DNA of 64,000 nt from an uncultured Gammaproteobacteria bacterium. Lineage in GTDB: Bacteria; Pseudomonadota; Gammaproteobacteria; Steroidobacterales; Rariloculaceae. The translations under genes were made by a program, and so were the position numbers. The stretch lies in NCBI GenBank assembly GCA_964503125.1, contig CAZCZE010000064.1:64052-128051 (forward strand), read 5' to 3'. Of this stretch, positions 5,434-38,614 are shown piece after piece (the stretch's first letter is position 1; each line of letters begins with the position of its first letter). The notes below the pieces were generated by a model. That model did not search any database. It had not been told where the DNA came from and saw only the letters and a program-made list of their open reading frames with translations.

Positions 5434-5574
5434 GAGGTCCACTCCGTAAGGCTTTGCGGCATCGTACAACGCCGTCCGTCGCCGGCGGCGAACTGGAGCA
5501 CAGTTGTCGGGCTATCTCTAGAATAGCCACGCCGGCTGGACGGCCCAGAGCCGCTCCTTTATAAACAGTAGTTT

Positions 5575-8004
5575 ATGGATCGATCTCGCCTCATCCTCGG
5601 CGTCGTGGGCGTGGCCGCCGCGCTCGGCGGCGGCGCGGCCGCGTTCCTATACCGCGGCGAGCTGTTCGGCCCGAGCGGCGAAGAGCAGTGGACGATCGTC
5701 CAGACCTACTGCGTCGAATGTCATAACGCGGCCGAGGCCGCGGGCGGCGTCGTCTTCGAAGGCATGACGCCCGACTCCGTGGCGCTCGAGGCGCAGGTGT
5801 TCGAAGCGGCCGTGGGCAAGCTGCGTGGCCGGCTCATGCCGCCGCCGGGCGAGCCGCAGCCCGATCAGCCGCGCATCGACTCGTTCGTCGCCTGGCTGGA
5901 GCGCTCGATCGACGAGAGCGCCGCCCTGCCGCGAGCAGGACACGTGCCGATCCAGCGCCTGAGCCGCACCGAGTACGCAGCCGCCGTCAAGGGTCTCGTC
6001 GGCGTCGAGATCGACGCGGCCGAGTTCCTGCCGGCCGAGATCGAGGTCGACGGCTTCGACAAGGTCGCGGCCGCTTTGAGCGTCTCGCCGGCGTTCCTAG
6101 ACCAGTACGTCGCCGCCGCGCGCCACGTCGCGCATCTCGCCGTCGGCGAGCCCGCGCCTAAAGTCGCGAGCGTATCGTTCCCGAAGGCCGAAGACGATCA
6201 AGACGACTACGTCGACGGCATGCCGCTCGGCACACGCGGCGGCGTGCGCTTCACGCACAACTTCCTGGCCGACGGCGAATACCGCATCACGATTACGGAC
6301 CTCGACGTGGGGCAGTACGCGCGCTCTCTCGAGAGCGAGCACACGGTTGTCATGCTGCTCGACCGCAACGAGGTGTTCCGCACGCAGCTCGGCGGTCGCG
6401 AGGAGCTCATGCTCTACAATCGCGGCGGCGCCCCGGCGAAGGCCGATATCATGGAACGGTTCACGAAGATTCCCGTGGCCGTAACCGCGGGGGTCCACGA
6501 GGTCGCGTTCACGTTCATCGAGCGCGCGCGCGCCTCGACCGAGGATCACATTTTCGGCTTTCAGCCGTACGGCGGCTTCGACTACGTGGGCAAGATGCGT
6601 GTGCCGCGCGTCATCGGCCGCATCGTGGTCGAAGGGCCATTCGGCGACACGGGCCTGTCGCGCACGGCGAGCCGCGACAAGATCCTCGTCTGCACGCCGG
6701 GCTCGCTCGCCGACGAGCGGCCCTGTGCCGAACGTATTGCGACCACGCTCGCGACGCGTGCGTTCCGCCGTCCCGTCGACACGGGCGACGTCGAGCGTCT
6801 GATGCCGTTCTACGAGAACGGCCGCGCAGCCGGCAATTTCGATACCGGCGTCGAGCAACTCGTGACGGCCGTGCTCGCGAGCCCCGATTTTCTCTACCGC
6901 GCCATCGCGCCGTCGCCCGAGGATCGCGCCGAGACTTTCGCGCTCGACGACTTCGAGCTCGCGTCGCGGCTGTCGTTTTTCCTCTGGAGCCAGGGGCCCG
7001 ACGAGGAGCTGCTGAAGCTCGCCGCCGAAGGCGAGCTCGGCGACACCGACGTCATCGAAGCCCAAGTCGAGCGCATGCTCGCCGATCCGCGTGCGGAGTC
7101 GCTCGTCACGGACTTCGCGCTGCGCTGGCTCAACGTCGACGAGATCGACGCCGTGGACCCCGACGATCGGTTGTTCCCCGACTTCACGGACGCGTTGCGC
7201 GATGACTTCGCCAAGGAGATCGAGCTCTTCGTGGCGAGCGTGCTGCTCGATGACCGCGACGTGCGCGAGCTCCTGACGGCCGACTGGACCTTCGTCAACG
7301 AACGGCTCGCACGGCACTACGGCATGGGTGCCGTGCATGGCCCGCAATTCCGTCGCGTGACGGTCGAGGACGACGCGCGCCGCGGCCTGCTCGGCAAGGG
7401 CGCGGTGCTGCTGCGCACGTCGTACGGCGATCGCACGTCGCCCGTGCTGCGCGGCGCGTGGGTGCTCGACAAGCTCATGGGCACGCCGCCGACACCGCCG
7501 CCCCCGGGCGTCGAGACGAATCTCGACACGCCCGAAGGCGAGAGGCCGAAGACGGTTCGCGCGCGGCTCGAGCAGCACCGCGAAGACGCGAACTGCAAGG
7601 CCTGCCACGGCGTCATCGATCCGTACGGCTTGGCGCTCGAGAACTTCTCGGTTACCGGCCAGTGGCGCGACGTCGACCCGGTGGCCGAAGAGCCGATCGA
7701 CGCCTCGACCGAGCTGTCGAGCGGTCAGGTCCTGAATGGACCCATCGAGCTGCGGCAAGTACTGCTGCGCCGACCGGATCAGTTCGTGCAAGCGCTCACG
7801 GCGAAGCTCATGATGTACGCGCTCGGGCGCGAGCTCGAGTATTTCGACATGCCGCAGATACGCGCCGTCGTGAGCACCGCCGCGCGCGACGACTATCGGT
7901 TCGCGAGCGTAGTGACCGCTATCGTCAACAGCGACGCATTTCGCATGCAGGCGCTGCCGCACGCAGAAGCCAACGAAGTGACGGCGCGCGCCCAACCCAA
8001 GTAG
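5575..8004 (+). CDS. DUF1592/DUF1588-type protein with two CxxCH motifs (copy 1)
   Basis: 809 aa with an N-terminal TM anchor. CVECH at 5710..5724 and CKACH at 7594..7608. Blocks LASRLSFFLWSQGPDEELL, FVNERLARHYG and SPVLRGAWVLDKLMGTPPTPPPPGV are typical of the Planctomycete-type PSD/DUF1592 family. Confidence 0.9.
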   Translation: MDRSRLILGVVGVAAALGGGAAAFLYRGELFGPSGEEQWTIVQTYCVECHNAAEAAGGVVFEGMTPDSVALEAQVFEAAVGKLRGRLMPPPGEPQPDQPRIDSFVAWLERSIDESAALPRAGHVPIQRLSRTEYAAAVKGLVGVEIDAAEFLPAEIEVDGFDKVAAALSVSPAFLDQYVAAARHVAHLAVGEPAPKVASVSFPKAEDDQDDYVDGMPLGTRGGVRFTHNFLADGEYRITITDLDVGQYARSLESEHTVVMLLDRNEVFRTQLGGREELMLYNRGGAPAKADIMERFTKIPVAVTAGVHEVAFTFIERARASTEDHIFGFQPYGGFDYVGKMRVPRVIGRIVVEGPFGDTGLSRTASRDKILVCTPGSLADERPCAERIATTLATRAFRRPVDTGDVERLMPFYENGRAAGNFDTGVEQLVTAVLASPDFLYRAIAPSPEDRAETFALDDFELASRLSFFLWSQGPDEELLKLAAEGELGDTDVIEAQVERMLADPRAESLVTDFALRWLNVDEIDAVDPDDRLFPDFTDALRDDFAKEIELFVASVLLDDRDVRELLTADWTFVNERLARHYGMGAVHGPQFRRVTVEDDARRGLLGKGAVLLRTSYGDRTSPVLRGAWVLDKLMGTPPTPPPPGVETNLDTPEGERPKTVRARLEQHREDANCKACHGVIDPYGLALENFSVTGQWRDVDPVAEEPIDASTELSSGQVLNGPIELRQVLLRRPDQFVQALTAKLMMYALGRELEYFDMPQIRAVVSTAARDDYRFASVVTAIVNSDAFRMQALPHAEANEVTARAQPK

Positions 8005-8030
8005 CCGGCGCACCACGGGAGGAATAGACG

Positions 8031-9377
8031 ATGTTCCTGACGAAAAAGCATCTGTCGCGCCGTACAGTGCTCAGAGGTGCCGGCGTGTCACTGGCGCTGC
8101 CGCTGCTCGACGCGATGATTCCCGCCGCGACGGCACTCGCTCAAACGGCCGCGGCGCCAAAACTGCGCGTCGGCTTCTTCTACATTCCGCATGGCGCGAT
8201 CCAATGGAACACGGCGCACGGTGCGGCGGCGGATCGCTGGAACCCAAGCGGCTCCGGCGCGAGCTTCAAGTTGAGCGAGATCCTCTCCCCGCTCGAGGAG
8301 TTCAAGCACCTCGTGACATCGTTCTCGCACCTCGAAAACAAGGCCAACCAGAACTCCGTCCACGCGATCGTGCCGGCCACCTGGCTCTCGGGCAAGCGCC
8401 CCGACAGCGGCGCGCAGGGCGCGAGCATGTCGACGACGATCGACCAGATGATCGCCGAGCGCATCGGCCAAGAAACGGCGTTGCCGTCCCTCGAGGTCGC
8501 ATCCGAGACGACGGCGCAAGCCGCGGCTTGTCCATCCGGTGCGGGTTGCTACTACTCGACGACGCTGTCCTTTCGCAACGCGAGTTCGCCGCTGCCGATG
8601 GAATTCAATCCGCGCAAGGTGTTTACGCAACTGCTCGGCGAAGGCGACACCGACACCGAGCGCGCGGCGATCACGGCACAGACGCGCAGCCTGCTCGACC
8701 TGATCGCGAACCGCACGGCCGCACTGCAAAGGGAAGTCGGCGCGAGCGACCGCATCGTGCTCGACGAGTACCTGAGCACGGTGCGCGAGATCGAGCGCCG
8801 CGTCCAAATGGCGGAGCAGCGTGATCTGTCGGCGATCACCCTGCCCGAAGCGCCGATCGGCGAGCTCGACTCTTTCGACGATCAGGTCAAGCTCATGTTC
8901 GACCTGATCGCCCTCGCGTATCAGGCGAACCTCACGCGTGTAGCGTCGTACATCATGGTAGCCGAGGGCACGCAACGCACGTACAACCATATCGGCGTGC
9001 CGGACGCGTTCCACCCGCTGTCGCACCATGCGAACAAGACGGACAGCATCGACAAGCTCGTGCGCATCCAGAAGTACCACGTCGAGCGCTTCGCGGCCTT
9101 CGTGAAGAAGCTCGCCGAGACCCCGGACGGCGACGGGTCGCTGCTCGACCACTCGCTGTTCATGTACGGATCGAACATGAGCAACAGCGACCGGCACAAC
9201 AACTATCCGCTGCCGAACATCCTGGTCGGCGGCGCGAACGGCCGGCTCAAGGGCGGCCAGCAGGTCGAGCTTCCGGAGCACACGCCGCTCACGAACCTGC
9301 TGCTCACGGTGCTCAACAAGGCCGGGCTCGAGATGCCGAGTTTCGCCGACAGCACGGGCGAGATCGCGGGCGTCTGA
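8031..9377 (+). CDS. DUF1552 (HXXSHH) domain protein, Tat signal (copy 1)
   Basis: 448 aa. N-terminus MFLTKKHLSRRTVLRGAGVSLALPLL. HPLSHH motif (DAFHPLSHHANK). GGAGG-type RBS. 26 nt after the DUF1592 gene. Confidence 0.9.
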   Translation: MFLTKKHLSRRTVLRGAGVSLALPLLDAMIPAATALAQTAAAPKLRVGFFYIPHGAIQWNTAHGAAADRWNPSGSGASFKLSEILSPLEEFKHLVTSFSHLENKANQNSVHAIVPATWLSGKRPDSGAQGASMSTTIDQMIAERIGQETALPSLEVASETTAQAAACPSGAGCYYSTTLSFRNASSPLPMEFNPRKVFTQLLGEGDTDTERAAITAQTRSLLDLIANRTAALQREVGASDRIVLDEYLSTVREIERRVQMAEQRDLSAITLPEAPIGELDSFDDQVKLMFDLIALAYQANLTRVASYIMVAEGTQRTYNHIGVPDAFHPLSHHANKTDSIDKLVRIQKYHVERFAAFVKKLAETPDGDGSLLDHSLFMYGSNMSNSDRHNNYPLPNILVGGANGRLKGGQQVELPEHTPLTNLLLTVLNKAGLEMPSFADSTGEIAGV

Positions 9378-10285
9378 TGCGCGGCGTGAATCGCAGGACG
9401 GTCCTACACGGCGCGCTCGGCGTTGCCGCCGCCGCGGTCGTTCGCCCCGCGTTCGCCAAAGTCAGCGCGATCACCGACGAGCTGTCGTTGATCGGTGGCT
9501 TGGGCGGCAACGTCGTCGCGCTGAAGACGAGCGACGGCGCCGTGCTCGTCGACAGCGGCAAGGCCGGCGCGAACAGCCCGGTGTTCGGTTTCCTCGAGGC
9601 AGCGACTAGCAGCCGGCGTGTCCACACGCTGTTCAACACGCACTGGCACCTCGACCAAATCGGCGGCAATGAAGCGCTCGGGAACGCGGGCGCCAACATC
9701 GTCGCGCACGAGAAAACGCGGCTGCGTCTCGCCGTCGGCTACTACATGGCCGTAGAGGACCGCTATCGCCCGCCCGCGCCCGTGCAGGCGCAGCCGACCG
9801 AGAGCTTCTACACGACGGGCTCCACGACGATCGCCGGCAAGCGCATCGAGTACGGCTACCTGATCGAGGCGCATACCGACGGCGATGCCTATGTCTATTT
9901 CCGCGACGACAACGTCATCGCCGTTGGCGACGCAATAGCACCCGAGCGCGACGTCGAGCTCGACTGGTGGGGCGGCGGTTGGCTCGGCGGCCGCGTCGAC
10001 TCGCTGAAGCAGTTGCTCGATCTCACGAACGCGCAGACGAAGTTCGTGCCGAGCTACGGCGACGTCGTCGGTCGCGCCGCGGTGCAAGCCGAGCACGACA
10101 TGTGCGAGCTGCTCTTCGACCGATTCTTCGAGCGCATCCGCAAGGGCGAGACTAACGAGGACATGCTCGCAGCCGGCATCATGGAAGGCACGGGGCGGAC
10201 GTGGAATGACCCGGCCAAGTTCGTCCACGACGCGCACAAAGGCTTCTGGGGCCACAACAACACTTTGTCGCACGATATCGTATGA
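9377..10285 (+). CDS. secreted MBL-fold metallo-hydrolase-like protein (motif HWHLDQ)
   Basis: 302 aa with a signal/Tat-like N-terminus. FNTHWHLDQIGGN at 9641..9658 occupies the HxHxDH position; also AHTDGDAYVYF. One-nt start/stop overlap with DUF1552. Confidence 0.85.
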   Translation: MRGVNRRTVLHGALGVAAAAVVRPAFAKVSAITDELSLIGGLGGNVVALKTSDGAVLVDSGKAGANSPVFGFLEAATSSRRVHTLFNTHWHLDQIGGNEALGNAGANIVAHEKTRLRLAVGYYMAVEDRYRPPAPVQAQPTESFYTTGSTTIAGKRIEYGYLIEAHTDGDAYVYFRDDNVIAVGDAIAPERDVELDWWGGGWLGGRVDSLKQLLDLTNAQTKFVPSYGDVVGRAAVQAEHDMCELLFDRFFERIRKGETNEDMLAAGIMEGTGRTWNDPAKFVHDAHKGFWGHNNTLSHDIV

Positions 10286-11811
10286 GACACCTGACACTCG
10301 CTGTTTCGATTCTGCTTGCCTGCGCTGCGGCGCACGCACAGCGGCCGCTCGCGGATCTGATCCAGAACGGCGAGCGAGCCGCGGCGCTCGCAGCTATAGA
10401 CGACGGCGCCGACGTCAACGCGACGCAAGGCGACGGCACGACGCCGCTGCACTGGGCCGTCTACAAGGTCGACCGCGAGCTCGTCGCCGAGCTGCTCGAT
10501 CGCGGCGCGAAAGCCGACGTCACGAACAACTACGGCTCGAGCCCGCTCGCCGAGGCCGTGAAGCTCGGCGACTTCCCGCTGGTCCGGCAGTTGCTCGACG
10601 CCGGGGCCAACGTCGAATCGCCGAACGGCGACGGCCAGACGGCGCTGATGCTCGCCGCGCGCATTGGCGCACTCGACGTCGCGAAGCTGCTCGTCGAGCG
10701 CGGCGCCGACGTCAACGCGAAGGAGGCCTGGCGCGATCAGACGGCGTTGGTGTGGGCCGTCGACGGCAACTTCCCCGAGCTCACCGAGCTCTTGATCGAT
10801 AGCGGCGCGGACGTGAACGTGCGCGCGTCGGCCAACGACTGGGACTCGCAGATCACGTCCGAGCCGCGCGCTCAGTACCGCCCCGTCGGCGGCCTGACGG
10901 TGCTCATCTACGCCGCGCGTTCCGGCTGCACGCGTTGCGTGCGCTCCCTGCTTGCGGCCGGCGCCGATATCGATCAGCCGACGCCGGAAGGCATGACGCC
11001 GCTGATGATCGCGATCGACAACACGAGCTACGATACGGCGCGCCTGCTGCTCGACGAAGGTGCGAACCCGCACGTCTGGGATTGGTATGGCCGCACGGCG
11101 CTGTACGTGGCCGTCGACATGAGCAATCTCCGCGGGCGGCAGCCGCACCCGACGGCGTCGTCCGAAACGTCGGCGACGGACCTCGTCCGGCTGTTGCTCG
11201 ATGCCGGCGTCAATCCGAACGCGCAGCTCAACATGCATCGGCCGAGCCGCGGCGGAAACAGCGGCCGCTTCGCCGACGAGCTATTGACGACGGGCACGAC
11301 GCCGCTGCTGCGCGCCGCGATCGGCGCCGACATCGACGCGGCCCGCCTTCTTCTTGCGCACGGCGCGCTCGTCGATCTACCGAACGTTCACGGCGTGACA
11401 CCGCTGATGGCCGCGGCCGGACACGTCTCGGGACGCGATCGGCGGTTCGATGCCGAGCAGGCCCAAGTGCGGGCGATCGAGCTGCTCGATCTGTTCCTTG
11501 CCGCGGGCGCCGACATCGACGCCAAGATCACCGACAACCACAGCCGCACAGCGAACGTCGGGCGGCAGCCTAACGCCGTGACAGAGCGCGAGGGGCAAAC
11601 GGCGCTCTACGGTGCCGTGAAGTACGGCTGGACCGACGTCGTCGAGTACTTGCTCGCGAAAGGCGCGGATCCGAACGTCACCGACGCGCTCGGCAGAACA
11701 CCAGTCGACGCCGCACTCGGGCGAGTCGCCGGCCGCGACAACGTCGTCTCCGAGGAGATCGCGGCGCGGTTGCGCGCCGCGAGCGCCCGCGGCCCCATCG
11801 TCACGCGCTAG
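10282..11811 (+). CDS. ankyrin-repeat protein with signal peptide (copy 1)
   Basis: 509 aa. Signal MRHLTLAVSILLACAAAHAQ. Repeated G.TPLHWA...LL..GA..N ankyrin units throughout. ATGA overlap with the MBL gene. Confidence 0.9.
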   Translation: MRHLTLAVSILLACAAAHAQRPLADLIQNGERAAALAAIDDGADVNATQGDGTTPLHWAVYKVDRELVAELLDRGAKADVTNNYGSSPLAEAVKLGDFPLVRQLLDAGANVESPNGDGQTALMLAARIGALDVAKLLVERGADVNAKEAWRDQTALVWAVDGNFPELTELLIDSGADVNVRASANDWDSQITSEPRAQYRPVGGLTVLIYAARSGCTRCVRSLLAAGADIDQPTPEGMTPLMIAIDNTSYDTARLLLDEGANPHVWDWYGRTALYVAVDMSNLRGRQPHPTASSETSATDLVRLLLDAGVNPNAQLNMHRPSRGGNSGRFADELLTTGTTPLLRAAIGADIDAARLLLAHGALVDLPNVHGVTPLMAAAGHVSGRDRRFDAEQAQVRAIELLDLFLAAGADIDAKITDNHSRTANVGRQPNAVTEREGQTALYGAVKYGWTDVVEYLLAKGADPNVTDALGRTPVDAALGRVAGRDNVVSEEIAARLRAASARGPIVTR

Positions 11812-11987: not shown

Positions 11988-13088
11988 ATGTCGTGCATGG
12001 AACGCAGGCACCTGCTTTCGATCGCCCATCGCTCTAGGCGGGCGCGCTCCGGCGCGGCGCTCGCCGCGGCGGCGCTGGCATTGCTCTGCGGCGCCTGCAC
12101 GGACTCCGCGCCGGCAGCACGCGGCGGCGCCGCTACCGCGGCCACGGCCATTCCGGTGGTGACGCGGCCCGCGCTCATCGAGCCGATGGGCCTCGAAATC
12201 GAGGCCGTCGGCACCACGCAGGCCAATGAATCCGTCGAGGTGACCTCGAAGGCTTCGAACACCGTCACGGCGATCCGCTTCCAGGAAGGCGAGGAAGTCG
12301 CGCGCGGCGTCGTGCTCATCGAGATGGACGCGTCGCAGGTGCGCGCCAACCTCGCCGAAGCGCAAGCCGCGCTCGCGCGCAGCAAAAGCCAGTACGACCG
12401 CAGCCTCGATCTTCAGGCACGGCAGGTCCTGTCGGTCGCCGATCTCGAGCAGGTCGAGGCCTCGCTCAAAGCCGACGAAGCGCGCGTCGCGGCGGCGCAG
12501 GCGCGGCTCGACGACACCGTGATCCGCGCGTCGTTCGGCGGCCGGACCGGCTTCCGGCACGTCAGCGTCGGCAGCTTCGTGAGCCCGGGAACCGTGATCA
12601 CGACGCTCGACGACACGTCCGTCATCAAGCTCGACTTCACGGTGCCCGAGACCTACCTCTTCGTCCTGCGCCGCGGCCTGCCCGTGACGGCCCGCGCAAC
12701 GGGGTTGCCCGACCGCACGTTCACGGGCATCGTCACGAACATGGACTCGCGCGTCGATCCCGTCACGCGCTCGGTCCTGGTGCGCGCCGAGCTCCCGAAT
12801 CCCGACGGTATGCTGCGCCAAGGCATGTTCATGACCGTTGCTTTGCAAGGCGAAGTCGTGCCGACGCTGCTCGTGCCCGAGGAGGCGATCGTCCCCGAGC
12901 GCGGCCACACCTACGTGTTCGTCGTCCGCGACAGCGTCGTCGACCGCCGCGAAGTGCGCATCGGCAAGCGCCGCCCGGGCTTCGTCGAGATCGTGAGCGG
13001 CGTCGCGGAGCACGAGCGCGTCGTCGTCGACGGCACGCAGAACGTGCGCGACGGCAGCGTCGTTCAAGAAGTCGGCGGCGCGAGCTGA
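11988..13088 (+). CDS. RND efflux periplasmic adaptor (MFP/HlyD family)
   Basis: 366 aa with a lipoprotein-like signal (ALLCGAC). Coiled-coil hairpin (AEAQAALARSKSQYDR...ARVAAAQARLDDTVIRA) and beta-barrel blocks typical of MFPs. Immediately upstream of the RND permease. Confidence 0.9.
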   Translation: MSCMERRHLLSIAHRSRRARSGAALAAAALALLCGACTDSAPAARGGAATAATAIPVVTRPALIEPMGLEIEAVGTTQANESVEVTSKASNTVTAIRFQEGEEVARGVVLIEMDASQVRANLAEAQAALARSKSQYDRSLDLQARQVLSVADLEQVEASLKADEARVAAAQARLDDTVIRASFGGRTGFRHVSVGSFVSPGTVITTLDDTSVIKLDFTVPETYLFVLRRGLPVTARATGLPDRTFTGIVTNMDSRVDPVTRSVLVRAELPNPDGMLRQGMFMTVALQGEVVPTLLVPEEAIVPERGHTYVFVVRDSVVDRREVRIGKRRPGFVEIVSGVAEHERVVVDGTQNVRDGSVVQEVGGAS

Positions 13089-13091
13089 AGC

Positions 13092-16000: not shown

Positions 16001-16244
16001 GGCCTTACCCCTGATGCTCGCGACGGGCGCCGGCGCCGAGCAGCGCCGGCCGATCGGCATCGTGGTGTTCTTCGGCGTAACGGTCGCGGTGTTCTTGACG
16101 CTGTTCGCCGTGCCGACCGTCTACGGGCTGTTGGCCAGAAAGACACGCTCGCCGCAGCACGTGAGCCGACTCGTCGATCGCCTGATGGGCGCGCCCGGCG
16201 GCGCTACGGGCGATGCCGTTCTCCGCGACGTCCGTCGCGACTGA
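13092..16244 (+). CDS. RND efflux permease (AcrB/AcrD/AcrF family)
   Basis: 1050 aa. MRISELSVRRPVFATVLSMLLVIFG start, two large periplasmic loops and 12 TM segments. Blocks GLVVDDAIVVLENV and AAKNGVLIVEFANQ. Confidence 0.95.
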   Translation: MRISELSVRRPVFATVLSMLLVIFGVVSLQRLSVREYPDIDRPTVSVTTAYRGASAAIIETKITQIIEDSVAGIEGILKIESDSEDERSQVRIEFDVDRDVDAAANDVRDRIARVLRGLPTEADPPQIVKADANADSVVTLAFSSDSMSMLDLTDYAERNIVDRMSTVPGVASVGIVGGRRYSMRVWIDRQALAARQLTVTDIEDALRRENVELPAGRLESRTREFSLRTMVGLENEQDFRNLVIARGADGHLVRLGELADVQLAAENERSYSRLNGQPGLMLQVQAQSKGNTLEIARGVREEVERMKDSLPAGTTLNVSVDNALPIEAALREVLIAVVFALSSVLAVIYLFLGNLRATLIPAVTIPVSIVASLTVMYALGYSVNVLTLLGLVLAIGLVVDDAIVVLENVHRRHELGEPRLLAAITGSREIGFAVIATTLTLISVFVPISFLPGDLGRLFREFGFTLAACVAFSALIALTLTPMLASRLPEHEHRNRFAAAMDRFFKQLARFYERCVRASVGRPWTVIAVLAVLIGVGIVTFRSVPAEFTPQADKGRAFIAIEGPEGSSFEYIDGYARQLEAIALRAREGGEIQRVLVRVPGQGGQDLRTGDINTARAFLIFSDWSERDRTAREIMEPVLAEARKLPGVRVSMGQPGGLGRGGLQSPVVAVIGGPDYERLAVWSDQMLQLAQANPGLANVQSNYKERKPQIRVSIDRDRAADLGISLEGVGRTLETVLGSRIVTTYIDRGREYNVILQGRDDIRETTTDLTNIRVRSGRTDELIPLSSVVRLEETSGTMQLSRFDRLRAIKISADLANGYTMGEAVQWFEDAVARELPPEATLDWDGQTREFTRTGQQLYFTFLLALAVVYLVLAAQFESFLHPVIIMVTVPLALLGAVFGLKLFGLTINIFSQIAVIMLVGIAAKNGVLIVEFANQLRDRGVAFIDAVVQASVTRLRPVLMTSLCTAFGALPLMLATGAGAEQRRPIGIVVFFGVTVAVFLTLFAVPTVYGLLARKTRSPQHVSRLVDRLMGAPGGATGDAVLRDVRRD

Positions 16245-26810: not shown

Positions 26811-27194
26811 CTATTCGTCGTCGATCAGCACTGTGCCTTGGCCGTCAACGATCTTGAGAATGTCCATCATCGGCGCGCCGTTGCGCGCGGGATGGCCCGT
26901 CATCATGATGCTGTCGCCAGGCGTCAGGATCGACTTGTGCCACTTCACTGCACGCGCGTCGCGCGCGAGGCGATTCGGGCTCGTAAGCTCGCCCCCCCAC
27001 TTCGTCTCTTTGCCGTCGTCGCCTTTCACGACGATGTAGACGAGGACGTGCGGATTCACGAACTGAAAATCCGTGACCGTCCCCGCAACGGTGACTTTGT
27101 TCACGGGCTCGAAGACACCTGCGCCGTGATGCGCCGTGGCCGGCGGCGCCACCAGCAATCCAAGTGCCACGACCACACCGACTTTTGAGCTCAT
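26811..27194 (-). CDS. DUF6152-like small secreted protein
   Basis: ATG at 27194 follows GGAGGA. Signal then ATAHHGAGVFEP...VTVAGTVTDFQFVNPHVLV, the HH...NPH pattern I recall for DUF6152. 10 nt upstream of paralog A. Confidence 0.8.
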   Translation of the reverse strand: MSSKVGVVVALGLLVAPPATAHHGAGVFEPVNKVTVAGTVTDFQFVNPHVLVYIVVKGDDGKETKWGGELTSPNRLARDARAVKWHKSILTPGDSIMMTGHPARNGAPMMDILKIVDGQGTVLIDDE

Positions 27195-31338: not shown

Positions 31339-32286
31339 GTGAGCTCGAAAACACTCGATCGCCGCCGACTCCTCGCCGCCGCCCTTGGAGCGGGCGCGGC
31401 CGCCGCGGTGGGCGCGGCTTGGCGGCGCGCCACGGACGCGCAGGCGGCCGCCGCAACGTTCGCGGAGACGCCACTGCGCGGGGGCATGACCGTGATCACG
31501 GGCGCCGGCAGCAACGTCGTCGTGCTGCGCACCGCAACGAGCGCCGCGCTCGTCGACAGCGGCCCACCCGAGCACGCGGCCGAGATCAAGAAGTTCGTGG
31601 GCGCGTTACCCGTCGAGCTCCTGTTCAACACGCACTGGCATCCCCTGCACACGGGCGGCAACGAGACGCTGCGCGGACCCGATACGACGATCGTCGCCCA
31701 CGAGCTCACGCGGCTCTGGATGAGCACCGAGTACTACGTCGACTGGGAAGACCGTACCTATTCGCCCCGCGCGGCCGCCGCGCTGCCGACGAAGACGTTC
31801 TACGCCTCGGATCCGCAGCCGATCGCGGCGCACAGCGGCGACGAGGAGATCGAATACGCGCATTTGCCCGAGGCGCACACCGACGGCGACATCTACGTCT
31901 GGTTCAAGCGGAGTAACGTGCTCGCCGCAGGCGGCACGGTGACGGCCGGGGCCTATCCTGTGCCGGACCATGCCACGGGCGGCTGGATCGGCGGGCTTGC
32001 GGCCGCGACCGAGAGGCTGCTCGCCATCGCCGATGCCGACACACTCATCGTGCCTGCGGCGGGGCCCGTGCAACGGCGCGCACATCTCGAGAAGCAGCTC
32101 GCGATGCTGGCCGAAATGCGCGACCGCATCGAGGCCCACATGCGCAAAGGCCACAGCGTCGCCGAAATGCTCGCCGCGAACGTGACCGACGGATTCGACG
32201 CCTATTGGGGAGCGGACCGCGACCGGTTCGTCGCCAACGTGTACGAAGGGCTGTGGTGGGCCGGGAGGCTGCGTGACTCGCTTTGA
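31339..32286 (+). CDS. Tat-exported MBL-fold protein (motif HWHPLH), paralog of 9377..10285
   Basis: 315 aa. Tat-type signal LDRRRLLAAALGAGAAAAVGAA. FNTHWHPLHTGGN at 31633..31650 and EAHTDGDIYVWF. Confidence 0.85.
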   Translation: MSSKTLDRRRLLAAALGAGAAAAVGAAWRRATDAQAAAATFAETPLRGGMTVITGAGSNVVVLRTATSAALVDSGPPEHAAEIKKFVGALPVELLFNTHWHPLHTGGNETLRGPDTTIVAHELTRLWMSTEYYVDWEDRTYSPRAAAALPTKTFYASDPQPIAAHSGDEEIEYAHLPEAHTDGDIYVWFKRSNVLAAGGTVTAGAYPVPDHATGGWIGGLAAATERLLAIADADTLIVPAAGPVQRRAHLEKQLAMLAEMRDRIEAHMRKGHSVAEMLAANVTDGFDAYWGADRDRFVANVYEGLWWAGRLRDSL

Positions 32287-34732
32287 TCGACGCGCTTCCG
32301 GTTTCGCCGCGCTCGGCGGTGTGATGCTGCTCGCCGGCTGCGCCGAGCCGCCGCCCGAGCAGGCCGTCGCGCAGCACGTCGCGACGTTCGGCCGCTTCTG
32401 CACCGACTGCCACAACGACGCGGAGCGTGCGGGCGAGCTGTCGCTCGAGTCCGTCACGGCCGCCGACGTCGCGGCCAAGCCCGAAGTCTTCGAGCAGGTC
32501 GTCCGTAAGCTGCGCGGCGGCCTCATGCCGCCGCCGGGCGAGCCGCGACCCGGCGCCGACGAAGCGCACGAGCTCGTCGTCGCGCTCGAGCGCTACCTCG
32601 ACGAGACCGCCGCGGCGCGCGGCCTCAACCCCGGCCGCGTCGCGCTGCATCGCATGAACCGCACCGAATACGCCGCCGCCGTCGAGCAGCTGCTCGGCCT
32701 GCGCATCGACGCGCGCTCGATGCTGCCCGCCGACATGGCGAGCGAAGGCTTCGACAACGTCGCCGAGGTGCTGCGCGTGACGCCCACGCACATCGAGCAG
32801 TACGTGGCGGCCGCGCGCGACATCAGCATCATGGCCGTCGGGGAGAAGACGCCCGCACCGACGCGCGCAGACTATCGCTCGGAGCGGGGGCTGCGCACCG
32901 CGCACGTCGACGGGCTGCCGCTCGGCACGCGCGACGGCCTGCTCGTCGAGCACAACTTCCCGGCCGACGGCAGGTATCTGATCAACCTCAACATCTCGTC
33001 GATTCCGGGCTCGGAGCTGCGCGGCTACCCTTACGGCTGGCTCGAGTACGAGCACGCGGTCGCGGTCACCATCGACGGCGCCAAAGTATTCGCCGGCAAC
33101 ATCGGCGGCGAGGTCGACTCGAAGGCGCTCGATCAAGGCCAGATCAGGGAGGTCGAGGCGATCAAGAATCGCTTCCGCAACATCCCCGTCACCGTCAGAG
33201 CCGGCCGGCGCAGCGTCGGCGCGGCGTTCGTCGCGCGCAGCTTCGCCGAAGGCGATTACCTCTTGCAGTCGCTCGTGCCCGGCGAGGGCGTGCCCGACAT
33301 TCCCCGCCTCTACGGCATGGAGATCATCGGGCCTTACGACCCGACCGGCATCGCCGAGCCCACCGAAAGCCGCGCGCGCATCTTCAGCTGCTACCCGCAG
33401 AACGCGAGCGCGGACGCGGGCAGGGATGCCCGCGGTAGAGCAACGCAGGGAGCAGTTGCCGAGCAGCCTTGCGCGACCGAGATTCTCACGAGCTTGGCGC
33501 GCGGTGCGTTCCGCCGGCCCGTGACGAGCGAGGACGTCGAGCCCGCGCTCAAGTTCTACGCCGAGGGCTATGCCGAGGGCGGCTTCGAGACCGGCATCCA
33601 AAAAGGCCTCATGGCGATCCTCGCGAGCACCAAGTTCCTCTACCGCGCCGAGCCCGGCGCACCGCCGGCAGATCTACCGGAGGGGTCGCCGTACGCTGTG
33701 AGCGATCTCGAGCTCGCGTGGCGGCTGTCGTTTTTCCTCTGGAGCCAAGGCCCCGACGAGACGCTGCTCACGCTCGCCAACGACGGCACGCTGCACGAGC
33801 CCGAGATGCTCGAGCGGCAGGTTCGTCGCATGCTCGCCGACGGGCGCTCGCGCTCGCTCGTGACGAACTTTGCGTTCCAGTGGCTCGGCGTGCGCCGGCT
33901 CGAGGCCATCGATCCAGATCCGCGGCTGTATCCGAACTTCGACGAGGATCTGCGCCGCGCCTTCGTCAAGGAGATGGAGCTCTACCTCGACAGCGTCCTG
34001 CGCAGCGACTCGAGCGTCGTCGATCTGCTGACGGCGCAGCACACGTTCGTCAACGAGCGGCTCGCGCGACACTACGGCTTGCCGAACGTGCGCGGCGATC
34101 AGTTCCGCCGCGTCGAGCTCGACGACGCGCGGCGATTCGGGCTGTTCGGCAAGGGCAGCGTGCTCATGGTCACGTCGTATCCCGACCGCACCTCACCCGT
34201 GCTGCGCGGCGCGTGGATCATGGACCAGATCCTCGCCGCGCCGCCGAACCCGCCGCCGCCCGGCGTCGAGACGGACTTGGCGCCCTTCGGCGACGTGCCG
34301 AAATCCGTGCGCGAGCGGCTCGCGCTGCACCGCACGCAGACGTCGTGCAACCAGTGCCACGGCGTCATCGATCCGCTGGGCCAAGCCCTCGAGAACTTCA
34401 ACGTCATCGGCGAGTGGCGCGAGCGCGAGCGCGACAGCGGCGTGCGCGTCGACTCGACGGGCGTCACATCGACGGGCCAGCCCGTCAACAGCCCCACGGA
34501 GCTGCGCGCGGCGCTGACCGCGGATCCCACGCTGTTCGTGCACGCGCTGACCGAGAAGCTGTTCACGTTCGCGCTGGGGCGCGGCCTCACGCATTACGAC
34601 ATGCCCGTCGTGCGCCGCATCGTGGCGGACGCGGAGCGTGAGGGCTATAGTTTCGAGTCGATCGTGTTGGGTTTAGCTCGGAGCGTGCCGTTCCGGATGC
34701 GGGGCACACCCGAGGAACCGGCAGGAGGCTGA
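32273..34732 (+). CDS. DUF1592/DUF1588-type protein with two CxxCH motifs (copy 2, lipoprotein-like)
   Basis: 819 aa. GTG start overlaps the MBL gene by 14 nt. Lipobox-like VMLLAGC. CTDCH at 32399..32413 and CNQCH at 34346..34360. Same conserved blocks as copy 1 (LAWRLSFFLWSQGPDETLL, FVNERLARHYG, SPVLRGAWIMDQIL). Confidence 0.9.
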   Translation: MTRFDRRASGFAALGGVMLLAGCAEPPPEQAVAQHVATFGRFCTDCHNDAERAGELSLESVTAADVAAKPEVFEQVVRKLRGGLMPPPGEPRPGADEAHELVVALERYLDETAAARGLNPGRVALHRMNRTEYAAAVEQLLGLRIDARSMLPADMASEGFDNVAEVLRVTPTHIEQYVAAARDISIMAVGEKTPAPTRADYRSERGLRTAHVDGLPLGTRDGLLVEHNFPADGRYLINLNISSIPGSELRGYPYGWLEYEHAVAVTIDGAKVFAGNIGGEVDSKALDQGQIREVEAIKNRFRNIPVTVRAGRRSVGAAFVARSFAEGDYLLQSLVPGEGVPDIPRLYGMEIIGPYDPTGIAEPTESRARIFSCYPQNASADAGRDARGRATQGAVAEQPCATEILTSLARGAFRRPVTSEDVEPALKFYAEGYAEGGFETGIQKGLMAILASTKFLYRAEPGAPPADLPEGSPYAVSDLELAWRLSFFLWSQGPDETLLTLANDGTLHEPEMLERQVRRMLADGRSRSLVTNFAFQWLGVRRLEAIDPDPRLYPNFDEDLRRAFVKEMELYLDSVLRSDSSVVDLLTAQHTFVNERLARHYGLPNVRGDQFRRVELDDARRFGLFGKGSVLMVTSYPDRTSPVLRGAWIMDQILAAPPNPPPPGVETDLAPFGDVPKSVRERLALHRTQTSCNQCHGVIDPLGQALENFNVIGEWRERERDSGVRVDSTGVTSTGQPVNSPTELRAALTADPTLFVHALTEKLFTFALGRGLTHYDMPVVRRIVADAEREGYSFESIVLGLARSVPFRMRGTPEEPAGG

Positions 34733-34733
34733 G

Positions 34734-36080
34734 ATGTTCATCACCAAGAAGCACTTGTCGCGACGGACACTGCTCAGGAGCGGTACCGCCGCGATCGGCT
34801 TGCCGCTGCTCTCCGCCATGGTGCCGGCGGCCACCGCGCTCGCGCAGACGGCCGCGGCCCCGAAACCGCGCATGGGCTTCTTCTACCTGCCGCACGGCGC
34901 GATCATGAACAACACGCGCTTCGGCGCGGAGATGAATCGCTGGACGCCCGACGCCGTCGGCCGCAACTTCGACTTGAAACCGATCCTCGAGCCGTTCAGG
35001 CCGTTGCAGAAATACCTGACCGTCGTCAGCGGCCTCGGCAACAAGCCCGCCGAGAGCTCCGCCGTGCACGCGATCGTGCCGGCCACGTGGCTGTCGTGCG
35101 CGCATCCGCGCCAGAGCCACGCGCCGTTCGGCGGCGTCACGATCGATCAGATCGCGGCACGGCACATCGGCCAGGAGACGCCGCTGCCCTCGCTCGAGGT
35201 GGCGACCGAGGAGGAAGGCGGCGGCGCCGCCTGCGATGGCACCTACGGCTGTAGCTACGGCCGCACCCTCTCGTTTCGCACGCCGACGACGCCGTTACCG
35301 ATGGAGTTCGAGCCGCGCAGGGCGTTCGAGAAAATCTTCGGCCGCGGCAAGAGTGACGCCGAGCGCCGCGCCGTGTCCGGCGACTATCAGAGCCTGCTCG
35401 ACATGGTGCTCGCCGAAGCGAACGCCTTGAAGGGCACGCTTGGTGGCGAGGACCGCGCGCTCGTCGACGACTATCTCGACAGCGTGCGCGAGATCGAGCG
35501 GCGGCTCACGCTGCTCGGCCAGCGCGATCTCACGACGATCGACCTGCCCGACGTGCCCGTCGCGCGGCCGAGCTTCGACGATCTCATTCGCTTGCAATTC
35601 GACCTCATCGTCGCCGCGTTCCAGGCCAACATGACGCGTATCGCGAGCTTCATGATGGCCGCCGAGGTCAGCAACCAATCGTACGCGCACGTGGGCGTGC
35701 CCGATGCGTTCCATCCGGTCTCGCATCACGCCGACAACAAGGCGTCGATGGAGAAGCTCGTGCTCATCCAGCGCTATCACACGCAGGTGTTCGCCGATTT
35801 CATGACGAAGCTGTCGAAGGTCCCCGACGGCGACGCGGGGTCGATCCTCGACAACTCGATTTTTCTGTACGGCAGCAACATGAGTAACAGCAACCAGCAC
35901 AATCAGTTTCCGTTGCCGACGCTCGTGTTCGGCGGCGGCGCCGGCGCGATCAAGGGCAATCAGCACCTCGTCTATCCCGACCGCACGCCCCTCGCGAACT
36001 TGCTGTTCACGCTCCTGCTACGCGCAGGCGTGCCCGTCGACAAGGTCGGCGACAGCACGGGTGAGCTCGCCGAGGTTTAG
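34734..36080 (+). CDS. DUF1552 (HXXSHH) domain protein, Tat signal (copy 2)
   Basis: 448 aa. MFITKKHLSRRTLLRSGTAAIGLPLL start and an HPVSHH motif. Starts 1 nt after the DUF1592 stop. Collinear with copy 1 along its whole length. Confidence 0.9.
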   Translation: MFITKKHLSRRTLLRSGTAAIGLPLLSAMVPAATALAQTAAAPKPRMGFFYLPHGAIMNNTRFGAEMNRWTPDAVGRNFDLKPILEPFRPLQKYLTVVSGLGNKPAESSAVHAIVPATWLSCAHPRQSHAPFGGVTIDQIAARHIGQETPLPSLEVATEEEGGGAACDGTYGCSYGRTLSFRTPTTPLPMEFEPRRAFEKIFGRGKSDAERRAVSGDYQSLLDMVLAEANALKGTLGGEDRALVDDYLDSVREIERRLTLLGQRDLTTIDLPDVPVARPSFDDLIRLQFDLIVAAFQANMTRIASFMMAAEVSNQSYAHVGVPDAFHPVSHHADNKASMEKLVLIQRYHTQVFADFMTKLSKVPDGDAGSILDNSIFLYGSNMSNSNQHNQFPLPTLVFGGGAGAIKGNQHLVYPDRTPLANLLFTLLLRAGVPVDKVGDSTGELAEV

Positions 36081-37647
36081 CGTGTCGCTCGGTCTGCGCA
36101 TTTTGCTGTTCACGGCCTGCGTCATCGCGGCCGGTGTGCAGGCGGCGGAGGATTTGGTGGCGGCGGCGCAGCGGAACAATGCGACGGTTGCGTTCGCAGC
36201 GATCGAGGATGGCGTCGACGTCAACGCGAAGTCGGCCGACGGCACGACGGCCCTGCACTGGGCCGTCTACCACGGCAACGTCGCGCTCGTCGAGCGGCTC
36301 ATCGCTGCGGGTGCCGACGTCGCGACGGCGAACGAGTTCGGCTCGACGCCGCTCTCGGAGGCCGCGACCCTCGGCAACACAGCGATCATCGAGGCGTTGA
36401 TCGAAGCCGGCGCGAACGTCGATGCCGAAGGCGCCGACGGGCAGACGGCGCTCATGGTCGCCGCGCGCAGCGGCAACACGGCCGCGGCCGAGGCGCTCAT
36501 CGAGCACGGCGCGAACGTCCACGCGCGCGAGCGCTGGCGGGAGCAGACGGCGCTCATGTGGGCCGCGGCGCAGAACCAGCCCGCGATGGTGCGGCTGCTC
36601 ATCGAACGTGGGGCCGACGTGGACGCACGCTCGGCGGTCAACGAGTGGCCGCGGCAGGTCACGGGCGAGCCGCGGCGCATGTACCGGCCGTTCGGCGGCT
36701 TGACGCCGCTCCTGTTCGCCGCGCGCGAGGGTTGCCTCGAGTGCGTGCGCGCGCTCGTCGCGGCCGGCGCCGACCTCGACCTCCCCGATCCGAAAGGCGT
36801 GACGGCGCTGTTTCTCTCGATCGACAACTTCCACTTCGACACCGCGAAGCTGCTCATCGAGGCCGGCGCGAATCCCAACAAATGGGACTGGTGGGGCCGG
36901 ACGCCGCTCTATTCGGCCGTCGACGTAAGCACGATGCCGCACGGCGGCCGTGCCGACCGGCGCTCCGTCGACACGGCGACGAGCACGCAGATCATAGAGC
37001 TCTTGCTCGAGGCCGGCGCCTGGCCCAACGTGCAGCTCAAGCTGCTGCCGCCGTACCGGCACATCGGCGACGACCGCGGCTGCGACCTCATGCTCGTCAC
37101 GGGCACGACGCCGCTGTTGCGCGCCGCGAAGACCTTCGACACCGCGGCGATTCGCCTGCTGGTCGCGCACGGCGCGCATCTCGACTTGCCGAATGACGGC
37201 GGCATCACGCCCGTGATGGCGGCCGCGGGCTTGGGCTCCGTCGAGTGCGACGCGCGCGGCTACGGCCCCGGCATTCCGCATTACATGACGCCCGACGTCG
37301 AAACGAAATCGATCGAAGCACTCGAGTTGCTGCTCGATGCCGGCGCCAATATCCACGCGCGCACGACGAGCGCGCGCGCCGCCGCGCGCAGCGCGGGGCG
37401 CACCGCGCTCTTCGGCGCGGCGTTCTGGGGCTGGAACGACGTCGTCGACTTCCTCGTCGCGCGCGGCGCCAAGATCGACGTCGCCGAGCGCGGCGGCATG
37501 ACGCCCGTCGACGCGGCGCTCGGCAAGGCCGGCGGCCACAGCCGCGGCTCGACGATCGAGGTCTTCGAAGACACGGCCGCGCGACTGCGCGAGCTCTGCG
37601 CACGACAAACCGATTGCGACTTGACGAAGCCCGACGGCGCGTCCTGA
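36061..37647 (+). CDS. ankyrin-repeat protein with signal peptide (copy 2)
   Basis: 528 aa from GTG 36061. In-frame GTG at 36082 would give SLGLRILLFTACVIAAGVQA as the signal and avoid overlap with DUF1552. Ankyrin units throughout, collinear with 10282..11811. Confidence 0.9.
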   Translation: MSSPRFSVSLGLRILLFTACVIAAGVQAAEDLVAAAQRNNATVAFAAIEDGVDVNAKSADGTTALHWAVYHGNVALVERLIAAGADVATANEFGSTPLSEAATLGNTAIIEALIEAGANVDAEGADGQTALMVAARSGNTAAAEALIEHGANVHARERWREQTALMWAAAQNQPAMVRLLIERGADVDARSAVNEWPRQVTGEPRRMYRPFGGLTPLLFAAREGCLECVRALVAAGADLDLPDPKGVTALFLSIDNFHFDTAKLLIEAGANPNKWDWWGRTPLYSAVDVSTMPHGGRADRRSVDTATSTQIIELLLEAGAWPNVQLKLLPPYRHIGDDRGCDLMLVTGTTPLLRAAKTFDTAAIRLLVAHGAHLDLPNDGGITPVMAAAGLGSVECDARGYGPGIPHYMTPDVETKSIEALELLLDAGANIHARTTSARAAARSAGRTALFGAAFWGWNDVVDFLVARGAKIDVAERGGMTPVDAALGKAGGHSRGSTIEVFEDTAARLRELCARQTDCDLTKPDGAS

Positions 37648-37666: not shown

Positions 37667-38614
37667 ATGAGCGCGACTCCATACCTGCGAGCATCGCTCG
37701 CGTTCGTCTTGCTGTTCGCTGCCGGCCACGCCGCCGCGCAGCGCAACCTGCCGCCGCTCACGATCGAGCAGCTCACGCCGCACGTCTACCGCTACGGCGG
37801 CTTGACCAACGGCGCGTTCATCGTGGGCTCGGAGGGCATCGCCGTCATCGACGGCCAGATCTGCGGTTCGAACGGCACGCAGTGGCTCAAGGACGAGCTT
37901 AGCCGTCGGTTCGACGTGCCCGTGAAATACACGGTCTTGAGCCACGACCACGAGATGCACATCTGCGGCCTCGAGGTCTTCAGCGACACGGCGCGCGCCA
38001 TCTCGCACGTCAATGCGAAGGCACACATCGTGCGCGAGAAGCGCCGCACCGCCGTGCCCGAGATCACGTTCGAGGACCGCATGCGGATCGACCTCGGCGG
38101 CATCGAGGTCGTGCTGTTCTACTTGGGCCCCACGCACACGGATAATTTGATCCAGGTGCACATCCCGGCCGAGAGAGTGCTCATCGCCGTGGACTTCGTA
38201 CGCGAGGGCAAGAGCCTTGCGATGCCCGAGCTGCGCGACTTGAACCTGGACAACTCGATCCGTGCCCTCGGCTATTTGGGGCGCATGGAGGACGTGGAGA
38301 TCGTCGTGCCGGGCCACGGCGGCATCACGACGCAACAGTCGTTCCTCTACGTGCGTGACTTCCTCGTCGCGCTCAAAGAGCGCGTGCTCGCGGAGATGGT
38401 CGCGGGCAAAGGCATCGAGGAGATCCTGACCACCGTCACGATGGACGACTTCAGCGACTACGGCTGGTTCGATCAGTGGATCCGCGCCAACGTCATCACG
38501 ATGTGGGAGCTCATGTACCACTATCGCGAGCCCACGCTCGACCCGGGTTGCTACGAATGCGATTTCCCGATCGGCTTCCCCGTCGGCGAGGTCGACAAAT
38601 TCAACGGTCCCTGA
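37667..38614 (+). CDS. secreted MBL-fold protein (motif HDHEMH)
   Basis: 315 aa with a signal peptide (LAFVLLFAAGHAAAQ). LSHDHEMHICG at 37943..37960, GPTHTDNLIQVHI and VVPGHGG. Confidence 0.85.
   Translation: MSATPYLRASLAFVLLFAAGHAAAQRNLPPLTIEQLTPHVYRYGGLTNGAFIVGSEGIAVIDGQICGSNGTQWLKDELSRRFDVPVKYTVLSHDHEMHICGLEVFSDTARAISHVNAKAHIVREKRRTAVPEITFEDRMRIDLGGIEVVLFYLGPTHTDNLIQVHIPAERVLIAVDFVREGKSLAMPELRDLNLDNSIRALGYLGRMEDVEIVVPGHGGITTQQSFLYVRDFLVALKERVLAEMVAGKGIEEILTTVTMDDFSDYGWFDQWIRANVITMWELMYHYREPTLDPGCYECDFPIGFPVGEVDKFNGP

Follow-up and report, generated by a model that had tools for sequence, protein, structure and literature searches.

A conserved linkage of DUF1592, DUF1552, metallo-beta-lactamase-fold and ankyrin-repeat genes, represented by two diverged clusters in an uncultured gammaproteobacterium

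Linkage of the four genes across genomes and metagenomes

The 64,000-nt stretch of DNA analysed here (the window; contig CAZCZE010000064.1 of assembly GCA_964503125.1, from an uncultured Gammaproteobacteria bacterium; GC content ~67%) contains two clusters, C1 (5575..11811) and C2 (31339..38614), which both encode a DUF1592-type di-haem cytochrome c protein, a DUF1552 (HXXSHH) protein, a metallo-beta-lactamase (MBL)-fold protein and a secreted ankyrin-repeat protein. Operon-like packing, export signals, conserved haem and metal-ligand motifs and linkage of the four genes were all observed directly, and it is very likely that the four genes are functionally coupled, since their linkage outlasts rearrangement, spans three phyla and occurs between flanks that are not conserved. 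As an explanation of the whole, including a role for each subunit, we propose that each cluster may be an operon encoding a metalloenzyme system that is exported, tethered to the membrane and coupled to cytochrome c, a reading which we offer tentatively and at slightly less than an even chance. The finding is a solid comparative-genomics lead, and not an explained system.

For the linkage scan of genomes, one genome per species was used with a DUF1552 alignment as anchor, which gave 80 loci from three phyla with DUF1552 proteins 64–90% identical to that of C1. All come from metagenome-assembled genomes (MAGs) of Gammaproteobacteria, Alphaproteobacteria and Acidobacteriota (Terriglobia, Bryobacterales and Vicinamibacterales), and locus L001, from an uncultured Gammaproteobacteria MAG, shows 80–90% identity. 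Gene content was scored by tblastn with the nine cluster proteins of the window, and approximately 72 loci had enough flanking sequence to be informative. The arrangement DUF1592-DUF1552-MBL-ankyrin, on one strand, in the same order and with short gaps, was present in 53 of these, and the otherwise orthologous remainder lacked the MBL gene (5 loci), the ankyrin gene (7 loci) or both (7 loci). An ortholog of the C1 ankyrin gene comes next after the MBL gene in 52 loci. When all open reading frames (ORFs) of the loci were clustered, these four were the only families common to most of them, the flanks being otherwise unrelated, and across the loci the four proteins co-vary in their identity to the window copies (rho 0.68–0.90).

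The reverse scan was done on metagenomes with the cluster 2 MBL as anchor, and returned 80 contigs, 60 of which were informative, the MBL gene being flanked by 1.5 kb or more on either side. A DUF1592 or ankyrin gene was found within 1.5 kb of the MBL gene in all 60, in four different arrangements: MBL followed by DUF1592, which is the order of C2 (27 contigs), ankyrin followed by MBL (17), MBL and ankyrin convergent (12), and DUF1592 and MBL divergent (4). In loci L082 to L107 it is orthologs of the first MBL of C2 (MBLa; 62–72% identity) that precede the DUF1592 gene. The initial annotation of the window had argued from the two clusters that MBL and ankyrin genes are tightly coupled to the DUF1592/DUF1552 pair, and both scans of relatives agree with this.

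Genes of the MBL fold and ankyrin genes are common, and all relatives sampled were picked by their similarity to window proteins, which together would favour an adjacency due to chance or to inherited gene order, without a functional link. Such an explanation is hardly credible when the linkage has outlasted four rearrangements, extends over three phyla with non-conserved flanks, and is seen in every MBL-anchored contig that reaches 1.5 kb or more to either side; we rejected chance adjacency on the counts from the genome loci and the MBL-anchored contigs. A role in anti-phage defence was also considered and rejected, as PADLOC gave only generic ankyrin-repeat matches and none for DUF1592, DUF1552 or the MBLs. 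In open-access papers and preprints we found no report linking the DUF1552, DUF1592, DUF1585, DUF1587, DUF1588 or DUF1595 families to MBL or ankyrin genes. No description of the four-gene module itself came to light in that literature either, and one may exist outside it.

Organisation of the two clusters

The nine cluster genes are long ORFs on the + strand (GC at third codon positions 0.86–0.91). Pfam searches and the translations bore out the initial annotation in their coordinates, in the four families, in both kinds of motif (CxxCH and HXXSHH), in the export signals (twin-arginine translocation, Tat, or Sec) and in the gene junctions:

5575..8004, + strand: C1 DUF1592-type di-haem cytochrome c protein, 809 aa (Pfam)
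8031..9377, + strand: C1 DUF1552 (HXXSHH) protein, 448 aa, predicted to be Tat-exported (Pfam, E 1e-76)
9377..10285, + strand: C1 MBL-fold protein, 302 aa, Tat motif, HWHLDQ (Pfam Lactamase_B)
10282..11811, + strand: C1 secreted ankyrin-repeat protein, 509 aa, Sec signal MRHLTLAVSILLACAAAHA (Pfam Ank families)
31339..32286, + strand: C2 MBLa, MBL-fold protein, 315 aa, Tat motif, HWHPLH (Pfam Lactamase_B)
32273..34732, + strand: C2 DUF1592-type di-haem cytochrome c lipoprotein, 819 aa from the GTG at 32273 (802 aa in the public annotation)
34734..36080, + strand: C2 DUF1552 (HXXSHH) protein, 448 aa, Tat motif (Pfam, E 1e-80)
36082..37647, + strand: C2 secreted ankyrin-repeat protein, mechanical ORF from 36061 (Pfam)
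37667..38614, + strand: C2 MBLb, second MBL-fold protein, HDHEMH, Sec signal (Pfam Lactamase_B)

Each cluster is packed like an operon, with overlaps, a 1-nt gap and short spacers. In C1 a 26-nt gap containing GGGAGGA precedes 8031, and the two following junctions are TGATG (9375–9379) and ATGA (10282–10285), while C2 has a 14-nt overlap (32273–32286), a 1-nt gap (34733) and a 19-nt spacer before 37667. For the C2 ankyrin gene the GTG at 36082, 1 nt past the DUF1552 stop, is more likely to be the start than position 36061, as it gives a clean signal peptide. Tat motifs are carried by both DUF1552 proteins, the C1 MBL and MBLa of C2, and Sec signals by the ankyrin proteins and MBLb, and the DUF1592 proteins start with a hydrophobic anchor in C1 and with a lipobox (LLAGC) in C2.

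Promoter and terminator scans gave sites no more numerous than in shuffled sequence, and no convincing internal terminator. A similar AT-rich element is located 5' of both clusters (CTCCTTTATAAAC at 5554–5566 and CTCCTTTAATAT at 31320–31331), and in the orthologous locus L003 the sequence CTCATCTATAAAC is found equally far from the start; this element may be a promoter or operator common to both clusters. A comparison of upstream regions across the loci was uninformative because mechanically called start codons were inconsistent. There is also a 19-nt inverted repeat with 6-bp arms (GGCTAT-CTCTAGA-ATAGCC) at 5510–5528, 47 nt upstream of C1, and a GC-rich hairpin without a T tract (GCATTTCCC...GGGAAATGC) at 38649–38677, 35 nt past the MBLb stop, which was not reported by the terminator scan and which may mark the end of the C2 transcript.

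The DUF1592 protein

Both DUF1592 paralogs match PSD3, PSD5, PSD4 (DUF1592), PSCyt3 and PSD2, all above the Pfam gathering cut-offs, and show a weak match to cytochrome c at the N-terminus. In the C1 protein the order of parts is N-terminal anchor, cytochrome c, PSD3, beta-sandwich, a helical body formed by PSD5/PSD4, PSCyt3 with the second haem motif, and PSD2. There are two CxxCH motifs per protein (CVECH and CKACH in C1, CTDCH and CNQCH in C2), and in 49 sequences, down to 45% identity, residues C46/C49/H50, M88-P89-P90, C674/C677/H678 and the cysteine pair C373/C384 are invariant. Judged by its residues, C46/C49/H50 with M88-P89-P90 resembles the site of a class I cytochrome c in which Met is a ligand, and C674/C677/H678 is the second haem motif. 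The features of a c-type cytochrome (CxxCH, distal Met and Sec-type export) are present in the sequence, with haem attachment as a prediction, and we consider it reasonably probable that electron transfer belongs to the chemistry of the system. The tethering of both paralogs, by different means, suggests that membrane position matters, which would be expected if electrons were exchanged with the respiratory chain.

AlphaFold2 (AF2) models were made with shallow input alignments, consisting of only the best 120 close homologues. The model of the C1 DUF1592 protein (predicted local distance difference test, pLDDT, 73.7; predicted template modelling score, pTM, 0.70) consists of a transmembrane helix at the N-terminus, a small cytochrome domain and a PSD3 domain, both helical, a beta-sandwich at residues 198–356, which falls outside the Pfam coverage, and a large helical body. 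Foldseek matches were mainly to jelly rolls of the carbohydrate-binding module (CBM) type (the sugar-binding domain of glycoside hydrolase family 2, CBM6/35/36 and BcsB), at a probability of at most 0.98 and E 0.02–0.4. The aligned query range was unreported, and the assignment of these matches to residues 198–356 is suggested by this being the only beta-rich part of the model. For the DUF1592 protein as a whole, neither Foldseek nor sequence and profile searches of the PDB matched a solved structure.

The DUF1552 protein

The DUF1552 gene directly follows the DUF1592 gene on the same strand in both clusters, after 26 nt in C1 and 1 nt in C2, and the HXXSHH motif takes the forms HPLSHH and HPVSHH in the proteins. 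Among close homologues the Tat motif S9-R10-R11 is invariant, and down to 27% identity this also holds for D138, D240, D245, E255, R303, H328, D373, S381 and H389, a pattern of Asp, His, Glu, Arg and Ser residues that suggests an enzyme active site.

The AF2 model of this protein is of low confidence (pLDDT 59.7, pTM 0.68), which is attributed to the shallow alignments. Ten of its 12 top-ranked Foldseek matches are S1 sulfatases, alkaline phosphatase and phosphopentomutases (E 0.02–1 with the pLDDT 59.7 model). The conserved P[HN]G motif behind the first strand would be consistent with an alkaline-phosphatase fold, as would the invariant H328 and H389. Searches against Pfam at E 10 gave no link to sulfatase, DUF1501 or phosphatase families. 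Taken from the model, an alkaline-phosphatase/sulfatase-like fold is a hint only.

The MBL-fold and ankyrin proteins

The MBLs match PF00753 above the Pfam cut-off, and do not have the complete canonical pattern of a binuclear site (HxHxDH with H196, D221 and H263). In 48 orthologs of the C1 type, H89, H91, H166 and D170 are invariant, with Asp or Glu at position 93 in 42 and Gln (Q94) in place of the canonical H121 in 42, and there is no equivalent of H263. MBLa of C2 reads HWHPLH and lacks equivalents of both D221 and H263. In both C2 MBLs the canonical Asp of HxHxDH is exchanged for a hydrophobic residue (HWHPLH and HDHEMH), whereas the C1 type keeps Asp or Glu. As read from these residues, the cluster MBLs retain the three-His site, their second site is degenerate, and the metal site is probably mononuclear. 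The subfamily is small, with 146 cluster representatives out of 1.84 billion at E<=1e-30, and the best matches in the PDB only reach E ~1e-5.

The nearest named families are class B beta-lactamases and the SoxH-related TIGR04558 and TIGR04559, the latter two being the top matches of MBLa and MBLb of C2 while class B beta-lactamase models rank higher for the C1 MBL; the best NCBIfam scores are 38–84 bits, far below the curated cut-offs of 100–300. The SoxAX, SoxB and SoxH proteins form a similar mix of components, with a c-type cytochrome, a Tat-exported metallohydrolase and an MBL. This similarity and the SoxH-related families among the nearest relatives would fit a Sox-like periplasmic pathway for a sulfur compound, inorganic or organic, in which the cytochrome performs an oxidative coupling, DUF1552 acts as the hydrolase that releases the oxidised group and the MBL is a SoxH-like helper. 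We regard this as highly improbable: the scores of 38–84 bits compare with cut-offs of 280–300 for those families, no SoxY/SoxZ carrier or other sox genes were found among the recurrent neighbours or the window genes scanned, and DUF1552 has no detectable relation to SoxB.

The second MBL of C2 is a different matter. The initial annotation had described C2 as the same families in the order MBL, DUF1592, DUF1552, ankyrin, MBL, which is correct. At the BLASTP level (E 1e-3) the last gene is not a paralog of the cluster MBL: MBLb gave no match to MBLa and is a remote relative only, 22–27% identical to the cluster MBLs. An MBLb-like extra gene follows the ankyrin gene in L053, and none was found 3' of the ankyrin gene in close C2 orthologs such as L093. 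On this absence and the low identity MBLb was rejected as a core component, and it is a lineage-specific accessory.

The ankyrin proteins match Pfam Ank, Ank_2 and Ank_4 in multiple stretches (E 1e-60 to 1e-70), with repeats over most of their ~510 residues. A third secreted ankyrin protein of 542 aa is encoded in the window (45437–47065, - strand), collinear with the cluster ankyrins at 34% identity over 462 aa.

Age and extent of the module

Between C1 and C2 the DUF1592 proteins are 46% identical, the DUF1552 proteins 53%, the MBLs 39% and the ankyrins 47%. The C1 DUF1552 protein is 67–69% identical to acidobacterial orthologs and thus nearer to proteins of another phylum than to the C2 copy in its own genome. 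From this comparison, C1 and C2 are ancient subtypes and not a recent within-genome duplication, and the earlier view that the duplication is old holds, with paralogs 39–53% identical. Both subtypes lie side by side in L077.

Outside the sampled orthologs the pair appears with fewer partners. A pair of 37% identity in Novosphingobium sp. KACC 22771 has a shorter ankyrin gene downstream and no MBL gene, and second DUF1592/DUF1552 pairs in L009 and L051 adjoin an ankyrin gene as well. In Chondrinema (Bacteroidota) the pair stands alone, in Planctomyces SH-PL62 the genes are DUF1587, DUF1592, DUF1552 and DUF1080, and on pMSHV of Sphingobium herbicidovorans (locus L165, 6373–10519) genes for a cytochrome c and for a protein with a cytochrome b/b6 domain come directly after a distant pair, an order of genes which suggests a wired electron path to the membrane. 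Since the MBL and ankyrin genes are missing from some orthologous loci and from distant pairs, they are additions to a two-gene core in one clade rather than universal partners. The most parsimonious account starts from a universal two-gene core, which in a proteobacterial and acidobacterial clade gained the ankyrin gene first and the MBL gene afterwards.

This distribution bears on the possibility that the DUF1592/DUF1552 pair is the whole unit, and that the MBL and ankyrin proteins are accessories of one clade outside the catalytic pathway, with the ankyrin as a periplasmic chaperone or inhibitor for protection or assembly, and the MBL clearing a toxic by-product. In Pseudomonas (AnkB with KatB) and Bdellovibrio (Bd3460), a periplasmic ankyrin is known to assist or inhibit an enzyme that is its partner. 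The distant pairs of Chondrinema, Planctomyces and Sphingobium without either gene, the Novosphingobium pair with an ankyrin and no MBL, the 5, 7 and 7 orthologous loci without MBL, ankyrin or both, and the stand-alone ankyrin paralog in the window are all in line with such accessory roles. The MBL subfamily nevertheless adjoins the module in 60/60 contigs, which speaks more for a dedicated partner than for a general detoxifier, the divergence of the four proteins is correlated, and the TGATG and ATGA junctions suggest translational coupling and matched expression levels. We see a purely accessory role as the main alternative, somewhat less likely than the four-component metalloenzyme system, which we prefer.

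A possible mechanism

In the metalloenzyme system that we propose, the DUF1592 protein would sit at the outer face of the inner membrane, held by a signal anchor in C1 and by a lipid anchor in C2, and with its two c-type haems and CBM-like beta-sandwich would be the electron conduit and the subunit that binds substrate or partner. The Tat-exported DUF1552 protein would be the catalytic subunit, with a metal site rich in His and Asp on a scaffold that is probably alkaline-phosphatase/sulfatase-like. The Tat-exported MBL would act in a second step, either on the product or on an intermediate or by-product, and the ankyrin solenoid of ~510 residues would hold the components together or control them. 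The c-type cytochrome and the ankyrin protein would leave the cytoplasm via Sec and the two putative metalloenzymes via Tat, and Tat export of the DUF1552 and MBL proteins implies folding in the cytoplasm, where metal loading would probably also occur. Redox coupling, the roles of the subunits and any substrate are what we infer here; that the substrate is a glycan or an organic ester is rather unlikely.

A system without redox chemistry would be one for purely hydrolytic nutrient scavenging, with DUF1552 as a sulfatase- or phosphatase-like esterase, the MBL as a second esterase and the haems in a sensory or structural role. Many of the top DUF1552 Foldseek matches being S1 sulfatases, together with alkaline phosphatase, speaks for this, as do the CBM-like domain and the membership of the MBL superfamily, which includes alkylsulfatases and phosphodiesterases. 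It does not sit well with the invariance of both haem motifs and the Met ligand, with the membrane tethering of both DUF1592 paralogs by different means, with the cytochrome c and cytochrome b genes that follow a distant pair, with the lack of a match of DUF1552 to any sulfatase or phosphatase Pfam model even at E 10, or with the degenerate second metal site of the MBL, and we judge it improbable. The cytochrome-coupled system is favoured over the purely hydrolytic one by the invariant haem ligands, the Sphingobium cytochromes c and b, and the analogy with Cbp2D described below.

Several observations count against the proposed system. The open-access papers and preprints searched give no known function for any of its members. 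The MBL and ankyrin genes are each missing from some orthologous loci and from distant pairs, and so are not strictly required by the core pair, and the third ankyrin paralog (45437–47065) lies apart from any DUF1592 or DUF1552 gene. For DUF1552, sequence and profile searches of the PDB found no link to a solved structure, and its Foldseek matches (E 0.02–1, from the pLDDT 59.7 model) give way to unrelated folds from rank 13, while the CBM-like matches of the DUF1592 protein are weak (E 0.02–0.4). The four-component periplasmic system proposed in the initial annotation is supported by the linkage, with the qualifications that MBLb falls outside the unit, that some loci are without MBL or ankyrin, and that the roles of the components are putative.

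The most far-reaching form of the proposal is a new class of periplasmic redox enzyme, in which a His-rich metal centre on the alkaline-phosphatase-like scaffold of DUF1552 would be driven by the di-haem cytochrome, itself tethered to the membrane and equipped with a domain of the carbohydrate-binding type, and the mononuclear MBL and the ankyrin would be obligate subunits. We consider this quite a long shot; if true, it would be a bacterial counterpart of cytochrome-driven oxidative processing of polymers or esters, following the logic of Cbp2D and lytic polysaccharide monooxygenases (LPMOs), and would show for the first time what the very large family of PSCyt/PSD and DUF1552/DUF1501 pairs does.

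Neighbouring genes

Three DUF6152 genes are present in the window, at 26811–27224 (- strand), 39953–40570 (+ strand) and 44334–45419 (+ strand). In all three products the predicted signal peptide ends with A-x-A followed by His-His (ATA|HHG, AAA|HHS and AFA|HHG), and an NPH motif is conserved; a mature N-terminal histidine is a feature of histidine-brace copper proteins. Two of the genes are paired with a gene for a ~250-aa protein without a Pfam match (26039–26800, - strand, and 39190–39930, + strand), and the third is a fusion of both, located tail-to-tail with the third ankyrin gene. One pair is directly downstream of C2 and upstream of a gene for a TonB-dependent receptor, and a DUF6152 pair also occurs within 10 kb of the module in 13/80 genome loci.

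A gene for a pyrroloquinoline quinone (PQQ)-dependent dehydrogenase beta-propeller was found within 10 kb of the module in 15/80 loci (within L002 to L078; for example 12288–14087 in L002). Neither these dehydrogenases (15/80) nor the DUF6152 pairs (13/80) have a fixed position or orientation, and both were rejected as module members. The cluster MBLs count the SoxH-related MBLs of the 'quinoprotein relay system' among their nearest named relatives, and the proximity of the PQQ dehydrogenases may be a coincidence in genomes rich in periplasmic oxidoreductases. In the window, a Crp/Fnr-family regulator with a cyclic nucleotide-binding (cNMP-binding) domain and HTH_Crp_2 is encoded approximately 500 nt upstream of C2 (30074–30829, - strand), and no regulator is kept beside the module in the other loci. 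Similarly, a resistance-nodulation-division (RND) efflux pair, consisting of an HlyD-type adaptor and an AcrB-type pump (11988–16244, + strand), begins 177 nt downstream of C1 and is not conserved beside the module in other loci.

Comparison with known systems

The DUF1592 and DUF1552 families were first defined in Rhodopirellula baltica. To our knowledge, few gene families of unknown function have expanded more in Planctomycetes and Verrucomicrobia than the DUF1592/DUF1552 and PSCyt/DUF1501 pairs, which have been uncharacterised since 2004, and periplasmic ankyrins tied to a specific enzyme system are rare. The clusters offer two extra handles on the function of the pair, namely a partner of the metallo-hydrolase fold with an unusual metal site, and a probable scaffold which predicts a physical complex. 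They also extend the question past the Planctomycetes to soil Proteobacteria and Acidobacteriota, with a three-gene locus in a cultured Novosphingobium.

In Verrucomicrobia, DUF1592 and DUF1552 were described as conserved neighbours about whose function nothing is known (He et al. 2017, PMC5615132). The clusters resemble these known pairs in the order PSD3-PSD5-PSD4-PSCyt3-PSD2, with DUF1552 immediately 3', in the CxxCH and HXXSHH motifs and in the Tat signal on DUF1552, and differ from them by the addition of a dedicated MBL subfamily and a secreted ankyrin protein of ~510 aa, in Proteobacteria and Acidobacteriota; the sampled pairs of Planctomycetota and Bacteroidota have neither MBL nor ankyrin. 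For the PSCyt1/PSCyt2/PSD1 and DUF1501 modules of the Planctomycetes-Verrucomicrobia-Chlamydiae (PVC) superphylum, electron transport and membrane targeting have been proposed (Kamneva et al. 2012, PMC3542564). As in these modules, a c-type cytochrome multidomain protein is combined with a Tat-exported protein of unknown function, in many copies, although different Pfam families are involved and the extras of the four-gene PVC variant are a PPC-domain protein and a PSCyt1/WD40 protein rather than an MBL and an ankyrin (PMC3542564).

With respect to the MBLs, periplasmic export and equivalents of H116, H118 and H196 are shared with the SoxH-related 'quinoprotein relay system zinc metallohydrolase' and with class B beta-lactamases, whereas the exchange of H121 for Gln in the C1 type and of D120 for Leu or Met in C2, and the lack of an H263 equivalent, set the cluster MBLs apart from both. 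No LPMO gene was identified in the clusters. Finally, Cbp2D of Cellvibrio japonicus is a candidate for the role of electron donor to LPMOs, which are copper enzymes, and one of its cytochrome domains, in isolated form, reduces them in vitro (PMC8981238). Cbp2D has no DUF1592/PSCyt3 body and no DUF1552 partner, MBL or ankyrin, and is a secreted protein of several modules with YceI-like and fibronectin type III (FN3) domains, but it shares with the clusters DUF1587 (PSD3) together with c-type cytochrome domains of a single CxxCH and a module of the carbohydrate-binding type.

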